Assembly (NCBI GenBank): GCA_038523235.1
Contig: JBCBJQ010000035.1
Location: forward strand, 1-51,828
DNA length: 51,828 nucleotides
Direction: 5' to 3'
DNA from: Cyanobacteria bacterium J06626_4
Lineage (GTDB): Bacteria; Cyanobacteriota; Cyanobacteriia; Phormidesmidales; Phormidesmidaceae
Positions 15,339 through 23,389 of this stretch are shown one piece after another. The notes under the pieces were generated by a model. That model did no database searches, was not told the origin of the DNA, and was given only the letters and a program-made list of their open reading frames with translations. How positions within the stretch are numbered: position 1 is the stretch's first letter; every line of letters starts with the position of its first letter. Both the position numbers and the translations under genes were made by a program.

Positions 15339-16520
15339 TTATCCCTTGACGCACATCACCTGCTTGAGCGTAGCCACGACCTCAACCAGATCGGCCTGGT
15401 TGGCCATCACCTGCTCAATCGGCTTGTACGCACCCGGAATTTCATCCAGGACACCGGCATCTTTGCGGCACTCGACACCCGCCGTTTGCTGCACCAGATC
15501 ATCCAGCGTAAAGGCCTTCTTTGCCTTGGTGCGAGACATTTGACGACCCGCCCCGTGGGAGCAAGAGCAAAACGCCGCAGCAGCCCCCTTGCCCTTCACA
15601 ATGAAGGATTTCGCCCCCATTGAGCCGGGAATGATACCGTAGTCGTTTTTCTGCGCCCGCACGGCCCCCTTCCGAGTCACGTACACATCTTCGCCAAAAT
15701 GCACTTCGCGCTCGGCGTAGTTGTGGTGGCAGTTGACCTGCAGTTCTGGCTTAAAGGGCTTGCCACCCGCCAACTGCGTTTCGACCACCCGCTTAAACCG
15801 GGCCATCATGACCTCTCGATTGCGCAGGGCGTAGTTTTGCGCCCACTGCAGATCGCGCCAGTACGCCTCAAACTCCGGCGTGCCCTGCACAAAGTGCGAC
15901 AGATCCGGATCAGGCAGCTTCAGGCCCGCCAGCTTCGCCAGCGCTTTGGCTGACTCAATATGGCGCTGGGCCAGCATGTTGCCGATATGGCGGCTGCCAG
16001 AGTGCAGCATCAGCCAGACCTGGGCGTCGGTATCCACACACAACTCGATGAAATGGTTACCGCCGCCGAGGCTGCCCATCTGCTTTTGAGCTTTATCTTG
16101 GAGCTTTTGCACTTTAGGGTGCAGCTCCTTGAAGTCACTCCAGCCCTGCCAGTTGGTGACGTCTTTATCAACTTGCTGGTTTTGGTTAAAGCCAACAGGA
16201 ATCAGCTTTTCAACCTCGGTGCGAATCTGCTTGAGTTTGCCGTCGAGCTGATCGGCGTGATACGGGGTTTTGACGGCGCACATGCCGCAGCCAATATCGA
16301 CCCCCACCGCCGCTGGCACGATCGCTTCCTTCGTCGCCACCACCGAGCCGACCAGTGCCCCTTTACCCAAATGAACGTCGGGCATCAGGGCCACATGCTT
16401 GTGGACAAAAGGCAGCGAGGCCACATTTTGGGCCATCTTGGTTTCGTTAGCACCCAGCTCATGCCCCGCCCAAGACAGCACGGGCACCGCTGTTGATAGA
16501 TCTAATGGCATGTAAGGCAT
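15339..16520 (-). CDS. rtcB: RNA 2',3'-cyclic phosphate ligase RtcB
   Basis: MPDVHLGKG, VGVDIGCG, GGGNHFIE, HSGSR, HHNY, TRKGA, PGSMG, SHGAGR, DEIPGAYK. Confidence 0.97.
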   Translation of the reverse strand: MPYMPLDLSTAVPVLSWAGHELGANETKMAQNVASLPFVHKHVALMPDVHLGKGALVGSVVATKEAIVPAAVGVDIGCGMCAVKTPYHADQLDGKLKQIRTEVEKLIPVGFNQNQQVDKDVTNWQGWSDFKELHPKVQKLQDKAQKQMGSLGGGNHFIELCVDTDAQVWLMLHSGSRHIGNMLAQRHIESAKALAKLAGLKLPDPDLSHFVQGTPEFEAYWRDLQWAQNYALRNREVMMARFKRVVETQLAGGKPFKPELQVNCHHNYAEREVHFGEDVYVTRKGAVRAQKNDYGIIPGSMGAKSFIVKGKGAAAAFCSCSHGAGRQMSRTKAKKAFTLDDLVQQTAGVECRKDAGVLDEIPGAYKPIEQVMANQADLVEVVATLKQVMCVKG

Positions 16521-17130: not shown

Positions 17131-17589
17131 TTATGCCTCCACCAGATCCGTGGCCCAATTAAGCGCCTGAATCTGAGCGTCTAACTCACGATACTCGCGC
17201 GAAAGCTGGTCGATCTGGCGTTGCAGTTCAGCCACATTCACCGTGCTCACCAGCCGTAATTCCGATCGCATGTACCGCTCTTGCGAAATCGCTGCTGCCC
17301 CGATGAGGCTGTCATAGGCGGTGCGCTTGAGCCGTAGCGTATCTCGGGTGGCCAATACATCAGACAACACCCCAGCTTGAAACGGCGTAACCGAGTTGGT
17401 GCGATTAATTTGTTGAATCAACCGCGTCAGCTCGTCGGTGGTCGCTTCTAACTCTGCCAGCAATACTTGCGGATCTTCTGGCGGCTGCTCGCCTTCTTGC
17501 ACCCGAGCACTCCGCATCAGTCGCTGCCGCAGTTGAGCCACCCGCTTTTGGGCATCAGCTCGCAAAATCAAGGCTTCTGCCAACTTCAT
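17131..17589 (-). CDS. DIP1984-family coiled-coil protein
   Basis: 'MKLAEALILRAD...VQEGEQPPEDP...INRTN...IQALNW'; RBS AGGAGGTGA. Confidence 0.85.
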   Translation of the reverse strand: MKLAEALILRADAQKRVAQLRQRLMRSARVQEGEQPPEDPQVLLAELEATTDELTRLIQQINRTNSVTPFQAGVLSDVLATRDTLRLKRTAYDSLIGAAAISQERYMRSELRLVSTVNVAELQRQIDQLSREYRELDAQIQALNWATDLVEA

Positions 17590-17651
17590 CACTCTCACCT
17601 CCTGTTCGTAAATTTTGTATGGGGGAGCCGCATCGCGGCCAGTGCTAATCC

Positions 17652-17932
17652 CTAAAAGTAGTGGTCGCGCAGGCTGCCGTCGTATCGCCCGCTATTGCGA
17701 CAGCATCGCTTGAAAGCAACGTCCCGAACCGCAAGGACACAGGTCGTTGTTGCCGAGTTTTTCCTGCAGTTCTTTATCGCCGTGCACGATACGGACACCT
17801 CGTTTCACCGCAGTTTCAGATGGATAGCCACGACGCCGTTTGCTTGAGCGAACAAAAGCCAGCGGCGGTTTCGTCAAAGTCTGCCGAGAGATCTTCGAGG
17901 TTGATTTTGGCGTTGGGGTTAAAGCGTTTCAT
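17652..17932 (-). CDS. SEC-C zinc-binding protein encoded across three frames (two +1 shifts), ~92 aa
   Basis: RBS GGAGGTGA then ATG 17932; +1 at TTT-T (17857-17854); +1 at TTT-C (17715-17712) completes [18 protein letters not shown]. Confidence 0.7.
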
Positions 17933-17965
17933 GATTCTCACCTCCGGTTACATGGATAAGCGCAG

Positions 17966-18758
17966 TTACTTTGACTGCTGGGCTAACTGGTTCTTGATCA
18001 GCCGAATTTCCTTTTTATTGCACTGCTGTTTGCTCACCGCATAAACTTTGCGTCCTGCGATATATTCAGCAGTCTGGGCAGAGACCTGACCCTGCAAAAT
18101 ATCGGTAACCGGGTCGATGCAAATTGCTGGAAATTCAGCAAACGTCACCCGATACCAAATGCCCTTGAGTTGGCGATACTGATGATTAGCATCGATCGCT
18201 AAGACATCGGTCGGGGGAGTGGGTTTTGGCTTCCGACGTTTTTTCTCCACCAGACAAAGCAAGCCTGTTTCTGGATGGACGTAGAAGCGATCGTGATAAC
18301 TACTTACTAGGGGAGCAAAGCTGCCCCACTCTGGCTTTTCATATAGAACACCCTCAATGATTTCGGTGTGCCGAACCACGTCATCCCAGACATGACTGAG
18401 CACATGCTGTCCCGCCAAGGTGTTGGTATTCAACTGGCGGCACAGCTTGCTGTAAACGTCGTTCCAAGGTTGACCGACGTGCGATCGCAAAAACCGTCGC
18501 AGTGGCCCTAAATGATCAGACAAATACTTAGACTTGTCTCTCGGCTTAATCAAATACGGACTGAGTAAGCCATCCTCACTGGCCTCCTGGGTGAGTTTGT
18601 GCAAGCGCTTTTTGACACCCTTCAACTTTCGAGAACTCATCCGCATACCACTCCGAGGACGTTCAATGACAATTTCGCTCAAACGATGCTCGCTCATAGA
18701 TTTGACTGTGCATAAAGTTGGACTGCGATCGTTGGGTTGTGATGCGAAATGACGTCAT
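17966..18758 (-). CDS. Conserved basic hypothetical protein, probably initiated at 18758 with +1 shift at TTT-C
   Basis: 243-aa ORF from 18697 has no visible SD; SD-led ATG at 18758 joins it in the +1 frame without stops. Confidence 0.7.
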
Positions 18759-18818
18759 TGAACTCACCTCCGAGAGAAATTTAGAACTGCAAAAATCGCC
18801 CAAACGCCACAAAGCATT

Positions 18819-18919: not shown

Positions 18920-18921
18920 AG

Positions 18922-18995
18922 TGGATTCGGTGGGAGTTGAACCCACAACCTCCTGTGTGCAAGACAGGCGCTCTCCCAGTTAGAGCTACGAACCC
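18922..18995 (-). tRNA. tRNA-Ala(TGC)
   Basis: GGGTTCG/CGAATCC with G3.U70; loop CTTGCAC. Confidence 0.9.
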
Positions 18996-19000
18996 AAGAG

Positions 19001-19097
19001 CAGGCGTGGCAGGAGTTGTTCGCAAAGCGTCTCCGGAGGAGAAACCTACACAGGTCGATTTAGAAGACCGATGCCCTTTCCATTAGGCGACACGCCT
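19001..19097 (-). tRNA. tRNA-Arg(TCT), interrupted in T-loop (19019-19042)
   Basis: AGGCGTG/CACGCCT; loop CTTCTAA; GTAGG-TT[24 nt]CAACT-CCTGC. Confidence 0.8.
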
Positions 19098-19102
19098 ATA
19101 TC

Positions 19103-19177
19103 TGGTAGTCCTGGTAGGAATTGAACCTACAACCTCTCGTTTGTAAGACGCTTGCTCTACCGTTGAGCTACAGGACC
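19103..19177 (-). tRNA. tRNA-Val(TAC)
   Basis: Cloverleaf with CCA; loop CTTACAA; weak anticodon stem. Confidence 0.8.
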
Positions 19178-19182
19178 ACCCA

Positions 19183-19253
19183 AGCGAGTGATGGGAGTTG
19201 AACCCATGCGCTGAGACTGGCAGACTCAGATGCTACCGCTACATCACACCCGC
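19183..19253 (-). tRNA. tRNA-Gly(GCC)
   Basis: GCGGGTG/CACTCGC-T; loop CTGCCAG. Confidence 0.8.
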
Positions 19254-19259
19254 ATTGAT

Positions 19260-19334
19260 TGGAGCGAAAGACGAGATTTGCACTCGTGTCTCCTGGTTGG
19301 AAGCCAGGGATGCTAGCTGCTGCACTACTTTCGC
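19260..19334 (-). tRNA. tRNA-Gly(TCC)
   Basis: GCGAAAG/CTTTCGC-T-CCA; loop CTTCCAA; T-loop TGCAAAT. Confidence 0.85.
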
Positions 19335-19337
19335 AAA

Positions 19338-19412
19338 TGGGGCTGGTGACAGGAGTTGAACCTGCAACCGACTGTTTACAAAACAGTTGCTCTACCGTTG
19401 AGCCACACCAGC
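19338..19412 (-). tRNA. tRNA-Thr(TGT)
   Basis: GCTGGTG/CACCAGC-C-CCA; loop TTTGTAA. Confidence 0.9.
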
Positions 19413-19415
19413 TTG

Positions 19416-19492
19416 TGGACGCGGGGGTGAGAATTGCACTCACTGATTTGAAGGGTATGAACCTTCCGAGCCACTGTTGCTCCATCCCCGCA
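19416..19492 (-). tRNA. tRNA-Met(CAT), atypical
   Basis: TGCGGGG/CCCCGCG-T-CCA; GAAGG-TTCATAC-CCTTC. Confidence 0.7.
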
Positions 19493-19566
19493 TACCCCTG
19501 ACAGGAGTCGAACCTGCAACAAACTTGTTTTAAGCAAGCCATGTCTACCAGTTGCATCACAGGGGT
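19493..19566 (-). tRNA. tRNA-Leu(TAA), short variable loop, no intron
   Basis: ACCCCTG/CAGGGGT-A; loop CTTAAAA. Confidence 0.85.
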
Positions 19567-19578
19567 TAAGAACCTTAG

Positions 19579-19640
19579 TTTGACGATGCTAGATTTCAAA
19601 TTGTGCAAATCTAAAATTCAAAATCGTCAATCTAAAATCC
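19579..19640. repeat. STRR-type heptamer repeats (also 19717-19742)
   Basis: AAAATTC/AAAATCG/TCAATCT-like units between tRNA genes. Confidence 0.6.
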
Positions 19641-19642
19641 CA

Positions 19643-19715
19643 TGGGCTGTATAGGACTTGAACCTATGCACTGCCGCTTAAGAGGCGGCTGCTCTGCCAG
19701 CTGAGCTAACAACCC
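19643..19715 (-). tRNA. tRNA-Lys(CTT)
   Basis: GGGTTGT/ACAGCCC; loop CTCTTAA. Confidence 0.9.
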
Positions 19716-19748
19716 GTAAAATTGAAAATTCAAAATTTTCAATGCCAG

Positions 19749-19820
19749 TGGGTCGCCCAGGGGTTGAACCTGGATCTCTCCGCTTAAAAGGCGGCTGTAT
19801 ATCCGCTCTGCCAGCGACCC
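19749..19820 (-). tRNA. tRNA-Lys(TTT)
   Basis: GGGTCGC/GCGACCC; loop CTTTTAA; weak D-stem. Confidence 0.8.
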
Positions 19821-19827
19821 AGACAAG

Positions 19828-19903
19828 TGGTACACCGAGCAGGAATCGAACCTGCTATAACGCACTAATCAGGTGCGCGCGTCACCATTTTCGCCTTCGG
19901 TGC
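19828..19903 (-). tRNA. tRNA-Ile(GAT)
   Basis: GCACCGA/TCGGTGT-A-CCA; CGCAC-CTGATTA-GTGCG. Confidence 0.8.
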
Positions 19904-19919
19904 TTGAGCCTTCCCATCA

Positions 19920-20075
19920 ACTCCTTGACCCCAAGCAAGACTTCTGACCACTGAATGACATCCTGATTGGTACTCCTACTGAGAGTCGTATGTCCTTCAG
20001 ACAGATTGCGTCCACGCGTCAGTGTCTCCAAAGGAGAAACCCACACGTAGGCTATTTCTAAGGCAGCCGCCTCTG
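19920..20075 (-). pseudogene. Decayed duplicate of the tRNA-Leu(TAG)/tRNA-Pro(TGG) pair with 49-nt nested insertion
   Basis: Aligns by eye to 20229-20336; insert 19989-20037 sits in the Leu T-loop. Confidence 0.75.
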
Positions 20076-20104
20076 TAGACGGGCAGTCCACAGTTGCTTG
20101 TAAT

Positions 20105-20182
20105 TGGTGTGACCGACGAGAGTCGAACTCGTTAATACTGGTTTCACAAACCAGCCCCGCCACCACTTTGGGTTCGGTCACC
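20105..20182 (-). tRNA. tRNA-His(GTG)
   Basis: G-1, GTGACCG/CGGTCAC-A-CCA; loop TTGTGAA. Confidence 0.8.
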
Positions 20183-20199
20183 ATATATTTTGATGAGAA

Positions 20200-20275
20200 T
20201 GGTCGGGATGGTAGGATTCGAACCCACGACTCCTTGGCCCCAAACCAAGGCTTCTGACCACTGAATTACATCCCG
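20200..20275 (-). tRNA. tRNA-Pro(TGG)
   Basis: CGGGATG/CATCCCG-A-CCA; loop TTTGGGG. Confidence 0.88.
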
Positions 20276-20277
20276 AT

Positions 20278-20355
20278 TGGTGCTCCTGGTAGGAGTCGAA
20301 CCTACACATGAACTGTTTCTAAGACAGTCGCCTCTGCCAGTTGGGCTACAGGAGC
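20278..20355 (-). tRNA. tRNA-Leu(TAG), short variable loop
   Basis: GCTCCTG/CAGGAGC-A-CCA; loop CTTAGAA. Confidence 0.88.
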
Positions 20356-20404
20356 ATGAACAGGAGGATAGAGCGTGGCTAGGCCACAAGCTCATGCCCC
20401 CCGA

Positions 20405-20478
20405 CAGGGAAGGAAGGAATCGAACCCTCAAACATCTGATTCAAAGTCAGATCGCTTTGCCAATTTGCGTACTTCCCT
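20405..20478 (-). tRNA. tRNA-Gln(TTG)
   Basis: AGGGAAG/CTTCCCT; loop CTTTGAA. Confidence 0.88.
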
Positions 20479-20586
20479 ATATAACGCCGACCAAATCGCT
20501 GACTACACCGAGTAAAGTTGAAACCTTTGCCATAGAAGCGATCTGGCTCGCAGTCTGGTCCTAACTGGACTGGCGACTGCGATCAA

Positions 20587-20688
20587 TGGATGCCGAGGCT
20601 GGATTTGTTCGCGCAGCGTCTCCGTTAGGAGTTACCAGCATCTCCGTGATTCAGAGTCACAGTGACTTTCCAAGTTGTCCACTCGGCA
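20587..20688 (-). tRNA. tRNA-Gln(CTG), interrupted in T-loop (20608-20632)
   Basis: TGCCGAG/CTCGGCA-T-CCA; loop CTCTGAA; GCTGG-TA[25 nt]CAAAT-CCAGC. Confidence 0.8.
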
Positions 20689-20693
20689 ATGAA

Positions 20694-20768
<75 letters not shown>

Positions 20769-20773
20769 ATGTA

Positions 20774-20846
20774 TGGGAAGTGACAGGATCGAACTGTCAT
20801 CTCGCCGTCTTCAGCGGCACGTGAGCACCAGCTTCACCAACTTCCC
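20774..20846 (-). tRNA. tRNA-Phe(GAA) with G37
   Basis: GGGAAGT/ACTTCCC-A; TGCCG-CTGAAGA-CGGCG. Confidence 0.85.
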
Positions 20847-20849
20847 ATT

Positions 20850-20934
20850 TGGCGGAGAGTAGAGGAATCGAACCCCTAGCTGTTAACTACCCTGGTTTTC
20901 AAGACCAGTTGCCGACCATTCAGCGGTACCCTCC
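20850..20934 (-). tRNA. tRNA-Ser(TGA)
   Basis: GGAGGGT/ACTCTCC-G-CCA; loop CTTGAAA; long variable arm. Confidence 0.88.
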
Positions 20935-20940
20935 ATGAAA

Positions 20941-21043
20941 TGGCGAGAACGGAAGGATTTGTTCGCGTGAGCGTCTCCGTTAGGAGAAACCTTCAGTCTT
21001 CGGTTTCGTAGACCAAGATGTTTTCCAGTTACACCACGTTCTC
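20941..21043 (-). tRNA. tRNA-Arg(ACG), interrupted in T-loop (20962-20987)
   Basis: GAGAACG/CGTTCTC-G-CCA; loop CTACGAA; GAAGG-TT[26 nt]CAAAT-CCTTC. Confidence 0.8.
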
Positions 21044-21049
21044 ATCAGG

Positions 21050-21131
21050 CGGAGAGCAGTGGACTTGAACCACAGACGCCAATCCCATCTGTTTAGCAAA
21101 CAGCGCCGATCGCCTGATCGGTTTACTCTCC
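21050..21131 (-). tRNA. tRNA-Ser(GCT), possibly degenerate
   Basis: GGAGAGT/GCTCTCC-G; loop TTGCTAA; poorly paired variable arm. Confidence 0.7.
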
Positions 21132-21149
21132 ATAAATTTAGACAACATC

Positions 21150-21310
21150 AGTACGGGATAAGAGAGAGCCTACCTGCCTAGTCGATGTTCCCCTCTCGGG
21201 AGGGGTTAGGGGTGGATTTCCGGCTCATTGCCAAGGGGTTGACCCACCCCGGCCTATGGCCACCCCTCCCATGGAGGGGATATTTCAGCCAGGTTTCTTT
21301 AACCCATACT
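21150..21310. mobile_element. MITE-like palindromic repeat inserted in the tRNA array
   Basis: Imperfect outer inverted repeat; CCCCTCTCGGGAGGGG-TTAGGGGTGG...CCACCCC...CCCCTCCCATGGAGGGG. Confidence 0.6.
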
Positions 21311-21323
21311 CAGGTTAGACAGG

Positions 21324-21406
21324 TGGGCAGGGAGGGACTCGAACCCCCAACGGTCAGGGACGACTGGTTTACAATCAGCCTGCTTCAGCCATTTGCATAC
21401 CTACCC
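21324..21406 (-). tRNA. tRNA-Tyr(GTA)
   Basis: GGGTAGG/CCTGCCC-A; loop TTGTAAA; long variable region. Confidence 0.85.
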
Positions 21407-21409
21407 ATT

Positions 21410-21486
21410 TGGCAGTGCTGATGGGAGTTGAACCCACAAACATCGACTTGAAAGATCGACGGCTTTACCAATTTGCCTACAGCACC
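21410..21486 (-). tRNA. tRNA-Glu(TTC)
   Basis: GGTGCTG/CAGCACT-G-CCA; loop CTTTCAA. Confidence 0.88.
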
Positions 21487-21515
21487 GAGAAATTTCTACG
21501 ACGTCCGCCGTAGAA

Positions 21516-21586
21516 CGCACAGACCAGGATTTGAACCCGGACAAAAGGTTTTGGAGACCTTTGTGCTGCCGTTACACCATCTGTGC
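21516..21586 (-). tRNA. tRNA-Trp(CCA)
   Basis: GCACAGA/TCTGTGC-G; AAGGT-CTCCAAA-ACCTT. Confidence 0.88.
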
Positions 21587-21661
21587 TGGTCGCAGCGGCG
21601 GGAATCGACCCCGCACCTGTCGGCTTATGAGGCCGCAGCTCTACCGTTAAGCTACGCTGCA
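21587..21661 (-). tRNA. tRNA-Met or Ile2 (CAT)
   Basis: TGCAGCG/CGCTGCG-A-CCA; loop CTCATAA. Confidence 0.8.
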
Positions 21662-21662
21662 G

Positions 21663-21738
21663 TGGACTCCAGGGCGGGAGTTGCACCCGCGATTGCTGGT
21701 TTTGCAGACCAGCGCCTTGCTAACTTGGCTACCTGGAG
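21663..21738 (-). tRNA. tRNA-Cys(GCA)
   Basis: CTCCAGG/CCTGGAG-T-CCA (U73); loop CTGCAAA. Confidence 0.88.
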
Positions 21739-21741
21739 ATT

Positions 21742-21824
21742 TGGTGGAGACGTGGAGAATTGAACTCCAGTCCTGCAGCCGTCCATTTGTCGGTTTCGGA
21801 GCAGTCAACTCCAGTTGCGTCCCC
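21742..21824 (-). ncRNA. Minimal tmRNA-like RNA (tRNA-like domain only)
   Basis: GGGGACG/CGTCTCC-A-CCA with G3.U70; D-region CAACTGGAGTTGAC; GGAC linker before T-arm; no anticodon arm or tag ORF. Confidence 0.7.
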
Positions 21825-21864
21825 ACGCACGAGGATGACCTGCTTCTGAGCAACATCCTCAACA

Positions 21865-21941
21865 TGGAAGCCTCGACGGGAGTTGCACCCGCTGCTCTGT
21901 GACTGAGAATCACAGCGACTTATCTATTCGTCCACGAGGCT
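21865..21941 (-). tRNA. tRNA-Glu(CTC)
   Basis: AGCCTCG/CGAGGCT-T-CCA; loop TTCTCAG. Confidence 0.75.
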
Positions 21942-21946
21942 ATCAA

Positions 21947-22135
21947 TAGCGGTGGCGGGACTTGAACCCGCGAGTTACCCGGCACCTTAAAACGCGCTTC
22001 CCCAACCCACATCTCTGCTTCGTCAGGTGCACTGCAAATTCGGCGATCCGGCTGCCCCTTACGTGTAATACCTGGGGGGCTATCCTCCAGCTGGTTCAAC
22101 GTTTGCTGGCGCTCTACCTCCTGAGCTACACCGCT
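21947..22135 (-). ncRNA. 189-nt tRNA-like RNA with large multibranched domain replacing the anticodon loop
   Basis: Perfect acceptor AGCGGTG/CACCGCT, D-arm GCTC/GAGC, T-arm GCGGG-TTCAAGT-CCCGC. Confidence 0.75.
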
Positions 22136-22138
22136 ATA

Positions 22139-22213
22139 CGGGAATGATGGGATTTGAACCCACGATCGCTCGTTCGACAAACGAGTGCTTTGACCGGACT
22201 AAGCTACATCCCC
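22139..22213 (-). tRNA. tRNA-Asp(GTC), first gene of array
   Basis: GGGGATG/CATTCCC-G; CTCGT-TTGTCGA-ACGAG. Confidence 0.9.
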
Positions 22214-22285
22214 AAGGTGGCAAATATTTAGTTTTCAAGGTTCTAAGGGCAGATTGTCAGCGCTGGGTAAGAGCGTGAAATCTTT

Positions 22286-22807: not shown

Positions 22808-23335
22808 TTAGTCAGGGGGATGTTCGGTCCAAAACTGTTCGGCAAAGGCCATGACCGGGTGCATGGGGGCTTTGGGTTTGGTTTTGAGGGTCAGATTGGC
22901 CGTCGGTAACAGGCGATCGCCCTTGGCGCTATTGCACGGGGCGCAGGCTGTGACGACGTTGTCCCAACTGTGGGAGCCGCCCTTAGAACGGGGTATGACG
23001 TGGTCAATGGTGAGCTGTTTGGAGCTGCCGCAATACTGGCAACGGTGCTGATCCCGGCGAAAGACTTCCCGGCGCGTCACTGGGGGCACTTTCCAATGCC
23101 GCTCACGATGGCCGCCCACCAAGCGAATGTGTTCTGACACCTGCAGGACGAGGCTGGGCGATCGCACCTCCCACTGTTGAGTAGTGCCAAACTCCAGAGC
23201 CTCAGCCCGTTCGGTCACCAGCAACACGACGGCTCGCTTTAAGGTGATCCGCGCCAGGGGCAGGTAGTTTTTGGAAAACACCACCACCGGATTTTTGAAC
23301 CGGGAGAGCGTTTGACTGGCTTGTTGTGTAGGCAT
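22808..23335 (-). CDS. HNH endonuclease (small McrA-like)
   Basis: 'VFRRDQHRCQYCG...LTIDHVIPRSKGGSHSWDNVVTACAPCNSAKG'; RBS GAGG before ATG 23335. Confidence 0.93.
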   Translation of the reverse strand: MPTQQASQTLSRFKNPVVVFSKNYLPLARITLKRAVVLLVTERAEALEFGTTQQWEVRSPSLVLQVSEHIRLVGGHRERHWKVPPVTRREVFRRDQHRCQYCGSSKQLTIDHVIPRSKGGSHSWDNVVTACAPCNSAKGDRLLPTANLTLKTKPKAPMHPVMAFAEQFWTEHPPD

Positions 23336-23348
23336 CGCTAAATTCCTC

Positions 23349-23389
23349 AAAAAAATAACCCCCGCTGCTGATAGTCAGTAGCGGGGGTT
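23349..23389 (-). terminator. Intrinsic terminator abutting the HNH RBS
   Basis: AACCCCCGCTACTGA-CTA-TCAGCAGCGGGGGTT-ATTTTTTT. Confidence 0.8.

Follow-up and report, generated by a model that had tools for sequence, protein, structure and literature searches.

A small SEC-C gene beside a cyanobacterial tRNA array, probably read by serial +1 ribosomal frameshifting at UUU_Y phenylalanine codons

We analysed a stretch of 51,828 nucleotides (nt) from Cyanobacteria bacterium J06626_4 (contig JBCBJQ010000035.1, positions 1 to 51,828, of assembly GCA_038523235.1), referred to here as the window, and concentrated on a small gene on its minus strand, at 17932-17645, that encodes a SEC-C zinc knuckle and whose reading frame is broken at three phenylalanine codons. 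Judged by its sequence, this region is an intact gene under selection, and it is very probably expressed through +1 ribosomal frameshifting. The best reading of the data, and one that we consider likely to be correct, is serial programmed +1 frameshifting by the ribosome at UUU codons followed by a pyrimidine (UUU_Y). That the frameshift sites serve as a stress gate, and do not merely set a low constitutive level of the protein, is a proposal that we make only tentatively.

The gene opens with an ATG (17932-17930) behind a Shine-Dalgarno (SD) sequence (GGAGGTGA; coordinates of all features are collected in Table 1), and an SD of the GGAGGTGAG type also precedes the ATG in relatives of the gene. 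If no shift occurs, the ATG frame (MKRF...) is 38 codons long and continues for 12 codons past site 1 to a TGA at 17818-16. A +1 step at site 1 (GGC TTT TGT) leads into piece B, with its basic region and the first SEC-C half-motif, CPCGSGRCF, after which the unshifted frame would read QAMLSQ and end at a TAG at 17694-92. At site 2 (TGC TTT CAA G), within the motif, a further +1 step restores F-K-R-C-C, and the third piece then terminates at a TAG at 17654-52 unless a third shift, at TAC TTT TAG G, allows the ribosome to read on. When TTTY is translated as a four-base Phe step, the region yields a 94-residue protein, P0001, which uses exactly three such steps and no further ones.

In this product, an acidic leader and a basic middle precede a C-terminal SEC-C zinc knuckle with predicted zinc binding, its putative metal ligands CxC...CC being C65 and C67 from frame B and C76 and C77 from frame C. 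P0001 matches the Pfam SEC-C profile PF02810 with 26.0 bits (E 8e-6, profile positions 2-18 of 19), above the gathering cut-off of 20.4 bits, whereas frame B alone reaches 20.2 bits and falls below it. The NCBIfam matches, to models of the YchJ/YecA type, cover the SEC-C motif only, and no curated full-length family covering P0001 was found in the Pfam and NCBIfam searches. An AlphaFold2 model built on an alignment of 18 one-frame relatives has a mean predicted local distance difference test score of 54.6 and a predicted template modelling score of 0.38, and is confident only around the knuckle; its quality is too low for a fold comparison. The window copy retains every residue that is invariant in the alignment of relatives (A1), and leaders homologous to piece A could be aligned across 53 unique sequences. 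A first-pass annotation made from the letters of the window had already proposed the SD, the start at 17932, the 38-codon frame and skips at TTT-T (17857-17854) and TTT-C (17715-17712) that restore the full SEC-C motif; its coordinates and translations are all correct on the sequence and the list of open reading frames (ORFs), and the profile score agrees with the restored motif.

The breaks are not a property of a single assembly. In Logan contigs from four runs of three studies, the region 17560-18000 carries substitutions and not one inserted or missing letter; a 311-base contig spans all three sites and a 1623-base contig covers the whole of this region. The SEC-C gene is present in 7 of 41 related genomes searched, the window's own included, and the same three pieces recur in 3 congeners at 92.6-96.9% nucleotide identity, while in a genome of another family the pieces flanking site 2 are present. 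The nearest orthologs, which the first-pass annotation had singled out as decisive should they encode the protein in one frame, share the same breaks. Pairwise comparison of piece B within the genus gives 50 synonymous and 13 non-synonymous differences, that is, a ratio of non-synonymous to synonymous differences per site (pN/pS) of 0.09, and the region that can be read only past the first shift is therefore still under selection, despite the UGU at site 1. Two variants were noted among these close sequences: a contig of run X5 has 130 different letters between 17784 and 17912 of the window, and in one congener copy (L007, genome G003) the middle is swapped for unrelated sequence and the last piece is in frame (CGT CGT TTT AAG).

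We then compared the breaks over a wider range of genomes, one per species, using the best 80 of 139 relatives; with the loci from the 41-genome search added and 4 duplicates removed, this gave 77 unique anchorable loci, designated here by L numbers. Site 1 reads TTT TGA in 65 of the 77, TTT TGT in the 4 of the window's genus, TTT TAC in 2, and TTT TGC, CTT TGA (L089) and TTT CGA in one each; in L090 and L097 it reads TTT CAA and TTT TAA with the offset shifted, in L021 the leader is fused in frame, and L087 is cut at the 5' end. Among the 76 loci with FKxCC, site 2 is a TTT CAA that needs a +1 step in 74 and TTT TAA in one (L097), whereas L018 is in frame there (TTC AAA, read as RRF-KRCC); TTT is the codon in all 75 loci that require a shift at this position, and TCC TTT C occurs in 15 of the 76. 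Site 3 is TTT TAG in 70 of 76 loci, and in 64 of these 70 the +1 frame adds R, one residue and a stop codon, so that the third slip site, offered in the first-pass annotation as a possible addition of RD, has held up well. Besides cyanobacteria, the breaks occur in loci of Chloroflexota, Acidobacteriota, Verrucomicrobiota, Armatimonadota and Burkholderiales (L042, L064, L075, L077, L078, L082, L089, L090, L094 and L096). The recurrence of the three-piece arrangement in independent genomes is in line with the earlier judgement that two random indels would hardly both fall on Phe codons at which the tRNA can re-pair.

Relatives that need no shift at a given site encode the residues that are predicted for the junction, as seen in L018 for site 2, in L021 for site 1 and in five loci for site 3. 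These five (L075, L094, L097, L142 and L152) have TTC or a non-Phe codon at site 3 and C-termini such as F-H-E, M-R-L, S-R-D and F-R-E (for example TTC CGC GAG TAA, TCG AGG GAC TGA and ATG AGG TTA TAA); in-frame endings of this kind show that the R-(E/D) tail is genuinely coding. Where the last Phe position is unshifted, it is TTC, TTT-A or a non-Phe residue. Among the 120 best database proteins listed, 102 have FKxCC in one frame, and 14, mostly from Nostoc, end in CFQ(K/A)(V/M)LS exactly like frame B of the window; the Nostoc records annotate a fragment of 55-68 residues without half the zinc motif. Genome annotation thus truncates or misses the SEC-C gene.

A scan of metagenomes with one-frame relatives of 55 residues as the query gave a similar picture. 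We used the best 80 of 588 loci, of which 76 were placed by a frameshift-aware aligner that, where scores tie, may misplace a shift by a codon or two. In 75 of these 76 loci, and in 75 of the 77 genome loci, CPC and DG are separated by one or more +1 steps. Of the metagenome loci, 56 have the step at the Phe of FK (F48), 5 at a CUU_C that lies four codons further on, and 18 at the Phe of GR(F)|DG (F58), with TTT TGA in 12 and TTT CGA in 2 of these 18; four loci have two steps between CPC and DG. When the FK Phe is unshifted, it is TTC-A in 18 loci and TTT-A in 2. In the metagenome set four positions host the break, three of which are Phe codons; across the aligned loci, the break changes codon between lineages yet is hardly ever lost.

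Purifying selection was assessed by Nei-Gojobori pN/pS over 21 representatives of less than 92% identity (210 pairs), the values being pairwise sums in which related sequences are counted repeatedly. Read in the proposed frames, piece B has a pN/pS of 0.151 (1.85 and 2.24 in the two alternatives) and piece C one of 0.157 (1.34 and 1.16); pS is 0.75-0.84, so that synonymous sites are near saturation. The leader has a pN/pS of 0.44 in frame 0 against 1.12 and 0.89, a constraint that is weaker but frame-specific. The codons of the gene follow a similar division. Among 180 Phe codons that need no shift (67 genome loci), TTT is followed by a pyrimidine in 6 and TTC in 56, whereas the shift sites are TTT-Y at all three positions in each of the 67 loci; since site 1 was preselected as TTT, only sites 2 and 3 test this rule independently. 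In these loci UUU_Y is avoided at Phe codons where no shift is required. The first-pass annotation had gone on to read the gene as programmed multi-site recoding that makes a protein of about 92 residues a sensor or AND-gate for loss of reading-frame fidelity. Its recoding part, with the third site included, has strong comparative support from breaks conserved across phyla, from frame-specific purifying selection after each of them, from in-frame relatives with the expected junction residues and from independent assemblies free of indels; the sensor part belongs with the more tentative proposals that are discussed below.

In the mechanism that we propose, the shift would be made by the ribosome and not by the polymerase. 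The tRNA-Phe with anticodon GAA would leave UUU in the P site and re-pair with the overlapping UUU at sites 1 and 3 or with UUC at site 2, and the A site would then be decoded in the new frame. At site 3 (UAG) and at site 1 of most relatives (UGA) a stop codon would stand in the A site, as it does in prfB, whereas site 2 is a plain UUU_C at which slippage would proceed without a stop codon. Ribosomes that fail to shift would yield either the 38-residue peptide or a protein carrying only half of the zinc site. With the sites in series, the output would depend steeply on how prone translation is to shift, a tendency that might increase when tRNA is damaged or under-modified or when release factor or A-site tRNA runs short.

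Several observations weigh against this reading. One-frame relatives exist, and frameshifting is thus dispensable for the function of the protein. No stimulator is apparent: an SD-like 4-mer within 18 nt upstream was found in 5, 4 and 0 of the 21 representatives at sites 1, 2 and 3, respectively, and at none of the sites in the window. The A-site codons are not rare either, as CAA and CAG number 241 and 338, and TGT and TGC 28 and 44, in 22 long ORFs of the window, and the efficiency of shifting, with three sites multiplying, may be very low. An ATG lies in frame C upstream of site 2 in 56 of 75 loci, which would allow separate initiation of the last piece in those relatives. Within the genus the leader has a pN/pS of 1.07, with few changes, and so shows no constraint there, and congeners carry replacements at otherwise invariant positions: in L002 the P of GYPSE is R and the G of YDGS is D, and in L004 R takes the place of L before CPC. 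The association with RNA-repair genes described below is recurrent but not universal, most of 48 metagenome neighbourhoods consisting of unrelated genes. Finally, among the sequencing runs found to carry the stretch none was of RNA, and the evidence for the trans-frame step is all comparative.

Among other explanations, the one that deserves most weight, although we regard it as unlikely, is that the breaks are tolerated 'savior' indels, in which one-base T-run insertions in an ordinary small gene survive because spontaneous shifting at UUU_Y yields enough of a protein needed in small amounts, and have no regulatory meaning. Every site does resemble a TTC turned into TTTC or TTTT, as expected from replication slippage in a T run, no stimulatory element was found, in-frame relatives exist, and translational 'correction' of such indels is named as a known use in a review (PMC5009743, part of the text). 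However, neutral or harmful sites should be easily removed by a one-base deletion, and the break between CPC and DG (75 of 77 genome and 75 of 76 metagenome loci) sits on different codons in different lineages and is hardly ever lost; two or three sites are moreover kept jointly in one 95-codon gene across phyla whose synonymous divergence is saturated. A decaying pseudogene with indels inherited within the genus is strongly disfavoured. Site 1 of the window has lost the UGA of most relatives, congeners have replacements at invariant residues and the copy in G003 (L007) has a replaced middle, but piece B retains a within-genus pN/pS of 0.09 (50 against 13 differences), the window copy keeps all invariant residues of A1, and the breaks persist across phyla at a pN/pS of about 0.15. 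Sequencing or assembly error at homopolymers, which could be suspected from breaks in runs of three to four T and from an assembly of 204 contigs, is refuted by the four indel-free runs from three studies together with the identical breaks in some 75 independently assembled genomes.

Two further possibilities concern how the pieces come to be expressed, and we find both very improbable. The frame might be restored by transcriptional slippage, RNA editing or an array tRNA that decodes four bases, and indeed a 24-tRNA array with a tRNA-Phe gene precedes the gene, and Nostoc-type loci have an odd tRNA-like gene with a variable anticodon. Against this, ARAGORN assigns ordinary three-base anticodons to all 24 tRNAs of the array, and eight relatives from Chloroflexota, Acidobacteriota and Armatimonadota (L042, L064, L077, L078, L082, L089, L090 and L096) retain the sites and have no tRNA gene within 3 kb. 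Productive polymerase slippage is known from T runs far longer than the three to four T found here. Slightly less probable again is that the pieces are never joined and that a frame-0 leader or upstream-ORF peptide is made alongside separately initiated peptides. The strong SD and the short acidic ORF, which ends at a stop codon in most relatives, resemble a leader peptide, and a start codon is available in frame B upstream of site 1 in 53 of 75 loci and in frame C upstream of site 2 in 71 of 75. The remaining 22 of 75 loci, however, lack all of ATG, GTG and TTG in frame B ahead of site 1, and frame C of the window has no ATG upstream of site 2, only a GTG at 17798. Termination-reinitiation is impossible at site 2 because no stop codon stands there, and the two halves of the zinc motif, CPC in B and CC in C, lie at the exact spacing of the one-frame relatives.

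Among the closest known systems is the prfB frameshift (CUU_UGA_C), which is likewise +1, with a P-site tRNA that re-pairs one base downstream and a stop codon in the A site. Site 3 of the window and site 1 of 65 of the 77 loci are 'shifty stops' of this sort, and L089 has CUU_UGA itself; the window genome also has its own prfB (L178, G000:C14:39588-40625) with the canonical AGGAG..CTT TGA C +1 site. Unlike in prfB, the slipping codon here is UUU (UUU_UGU in the window), there is neither an SD-like stimulator nor the CUU_UGA_C heptamer, three sites lie in one 95-codon gene, and the A-site codon at site 2 is a sense codon. Nor is the SEC-C product a release factor, and the feedback loop of prfB can therefore not be carried over as it stands. 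To our knowledge, very few bacterial chromosomal genes use programmed +1 frameshifting, of which prfB is the classic example, and each has a single site. On comparison of the loci, by contrast, a widespread small gene keeps two to four serial UUU_Y sites without a visible stimulator.

Shifting at UUU_Y as such is not new, and the primary work is said to include an error at argI and studies by Schwartz and Curran. UUU_Ynn is described as especially prone to +1 shifting in bacteria, with no stop codon needed, and as the likely site in YopN-TyeA of Yersinia, and a +1 shift on UUU is described in a rhizobial integrative and conjugative element (both PMC5009743, part of the text). Those bacterial sites share the tetranucleotide with the present gene but are single sites in unrelated genes, whereas the SEC-C gene has two or three in series, conserved across phyla and moving among Phe codons. 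PA-X of influenza A virus (UCC_UUU_CGU) similarly has UUU in the P site and a skipped C (PMC5009743, part of the text), but it is eukaryotic viral with a rare CGU in the A site, while the SEC-C gene is bacterial with CAA there; the relatives with TCC TTT C at site 2 share the UCC of the viral site as well. As for the protein, it resembles the SEC-C proteins (the SecA C-terminus, YecA and YchJ; PF02810) in its CxC...CC pattern and in a match above the cut-off, and differs from them in its small stand-alone form, its own conserved basic N-terminal part, its YDGS.R..YF tail and a motif split by a frame break. No published description of a frameshifted SEC-C gene was found in the literature covered, which omits most subscription journals and thus leaves its absence from print unproven.

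Table 1. Features of the SEC-C gene and its neighbours in the window, listed in the direction of transcription.
Feature	Coordinates	Strand	Remarks
HNH endonuclease gene	22811..23350	-	Pfam HNH, E 8e-17; upstream of the tRNA array
24-tRNA array (cyanobacterial L-array)	18921..22214	-	ARAGORN; same strand, upstream of the SEC-C gene
orf243	17966..18697	-	upstream partner; stop codon 33 nt before the SEC-C ATG
Shine-Dalgarno GGAGGTGA	17938..17945	-	full-length anti-SD match, 5 nt 5' of the start codon
Piece A, frame 0	17855..17932	-	ATG + 25 codons; acidic N-terminal leader ending on the site-1 Phe codon
Site 1, UUU_U	17854..17857	-	GGC TTT TGT; junction GGC TTT|T GTT, TTT at 17857-55
Piece B, +1 frame	17713..17853	-	47 codons; basic region and first half of the SEC-C motif
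Site 2, UUU_C	17712..17715	-	TGC TTT CAA G within the zinc motif; junction TGC TTT|C AAG, TTT at 17715-13
Piece C, +2 frame	17655..17711	-	19 codons; second half of the SEC-C motif and conserved tail
Site 3, UUU_U, UAG in A site	17654..17657	-	TAC TTT TAG G; junction TAC TTT|T AGG, TTT at 17657-55
Two-codon tail R-D-stop (AGG GAT TAG)	17645..17653	-	read only after the third shift
DUF6847/DIP1984-family gene	17131..17598	-	directly downstream; PF20935 E 2e-53, NF038048 E 1e-56
RtcB RNA ligase gene	15339..16520	-	downstream; Pfam PF01139, E 7e-127

The SEC-C gene lies between a tRNA array and genes that include an RtcB RNA ligase (Table 1). Its upstream partner, orf243, has no family match in Pfam or NCBIfam, and the ESM Atlas gave unnamed clusters only; 49 of 82 loci have it next to or ahead of the SEC-C gene, and it is present in 6 of the 7 genomes that carry the latter. 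The DUF6847/DIP1984 gene directly downstream probably starts at ATG 17589 behind an GGAGGTGAG SD of its own. Of 82 loci, 11 have RtcB downstream of the SEC-C gene, and of 50 loci scanned, 13 have an array of 9-25 tRNAs upstream of it. Beyond the cyanobacteria, L042 has Hen1 downstream, L093 is surrounded by Ro60, Macro and RtcB, and RtcB and Obg are neighbours in L090 and L082, respectively; Ro60 (TROVE) adjoins the gene in 4 of 48 metagenome loci. These neighbours (L-array, RtcB, Hen1 and Ro60) suggest, by gene context, that the protein has a role in how the cell deals with damaged RNA or stalled translation.

The HNH gene, the long tRNA array on the same strand and rtcB give the window the neighbourhood published for cyanobacterial L-arrays (trn operon) and their TrcR regulon. 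In the parts available of the two papers on this system, an HNH gene is conserved upstream of L-operons, and L-arrays and rtcB are silent until translation is impaired and are induced by translational stress (PMC8421152), while derepression of the TrcR regulon raised the signals of +1, -1 and read-through lacZ reporters (PMC10272220). Neither a SEC-C gene nor a frameshifted array gene is mentioned in those parts of the main text and supplement of PMC8421152 and of the main text of PMC10272220. The prfH-rtcB operon offers a further parallel, in that a gene of the translation-rescue type, for an unusual release factor, is linked to RtcB, but the protein comes from another family, and the part of PMC1586002 available does not present the gene as recoded.

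The SEC-C protein might thus serve the tRNA L-array/RtcB module in its response to translational stress and in RNA repair. We put forward, with slightly more reserve than the stress gate in general, the idea of a 'frame-fidelity fuse', in which the full-length protein would be made only when frame maintenance fails broadly, and would act on ribosomes or damaged RNA together with RtcB, Hen1/Pnkp and Ro60 and, in cyanobacteria, with the tRNA L-array that stress induces. In most relatives the three sites would await different readers, namely release factor RF2 (UGA), tRNA-Gln (CAA) and release factor RF1 (UAG), and the response would be steep because three probabilities multiply; triggers could be, for example, tRNA cleavage, under-modification, or scarce release factors or tRNAs. 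The odd tRNA-like gene of Nostoc-type loci, with its varying anticodon, may join the same circuit.

If the frameshift reading is true, the gene would show that a need for frameshifting can itself be selected, it would be a natural reporter of reading-frame fidelity, and it would link recoding with RNA repair and with the stress-induced tRNA arrays of cyanobacteria, which still lack an explanation. A practical implication is that annotation pipelines truncate or skip the SEC-C gene.

The surroundings of the gene showed some further features. A long SD, GGAGGTGAG, is present at all three protein-coding starts after the array (17591-17602, 17937-17945 and 18763-18771, minus strand). The last of these precedes a short ORF with ATG 18758, which overlaps the start of orf243 in the -1 frame (18663-18771, minus strand). 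Most loci have the same short ORF; in L007 it is fused in frame to orf243, and in L053 it is in frame but ends at a stop. We considered whether orf243 is a second frameshifted gene and rejected this, as the frame of the short ORF relative to orf243 is not constant among the loci; the short ORF resembles a leader and not a fourth frameshift. An antisense ORF of 127 residues across the SEC-C gene (17661-18044, plus strand) was likewise rejected as a conserved gene, since just 7 of 75 loci keep it open for at least 90 codons.

A conserved 73-nt tRNA-like gene lies about 60-130 nt upstream of the SEC-C gene in loci of the Nostoc type and in some others from cyanobacteria (L024:2852-2924, L026:2852-2924, L027:2860-2933, L036:2825-2897, L037:2801-2873, L084:2802-2874 and others). 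It is nearly invariant in the Nostoc-type loci, and a second group (L037, L059, L084 and L063) differs in the anticodon stem; the anticodon varies by genome among GAA, AAA, TGA, TAA, CAT, ATT and GAT. A search of the window for this gene gave 0 matches. In 11 Nostoc-type loci a tRNA with anticodon CTA, labelled 'Pyl' by ARAGORN, lies upstream of orf243 (L024:1221-1294, L025:1232-1305, L028:1185-1258, L036:1081-1155, L047:1146-1219 and 6 more); it looks like an amber suppressor, and it lies in the same cluster as a gene whose last site is UUU_UAG. ARAGORN also reported four-base anticodons, TTGG in L084 (1052-1128) and GCGA in L075 (1367-1444), and as L084 is a MinION-only assembly, an indel error is possible there. 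In the Verrucomicrobiae locus L094 (63-137 and 5841-6086), tRNA-Phe(GAA), tRNA-Lys(TTT) and tRNA-Gln(TTG) flank the gene within 3 kb; these are the three tRNAs that would meet at site 2 (UUU CAA to UUC AAR), which may be a coincidence.

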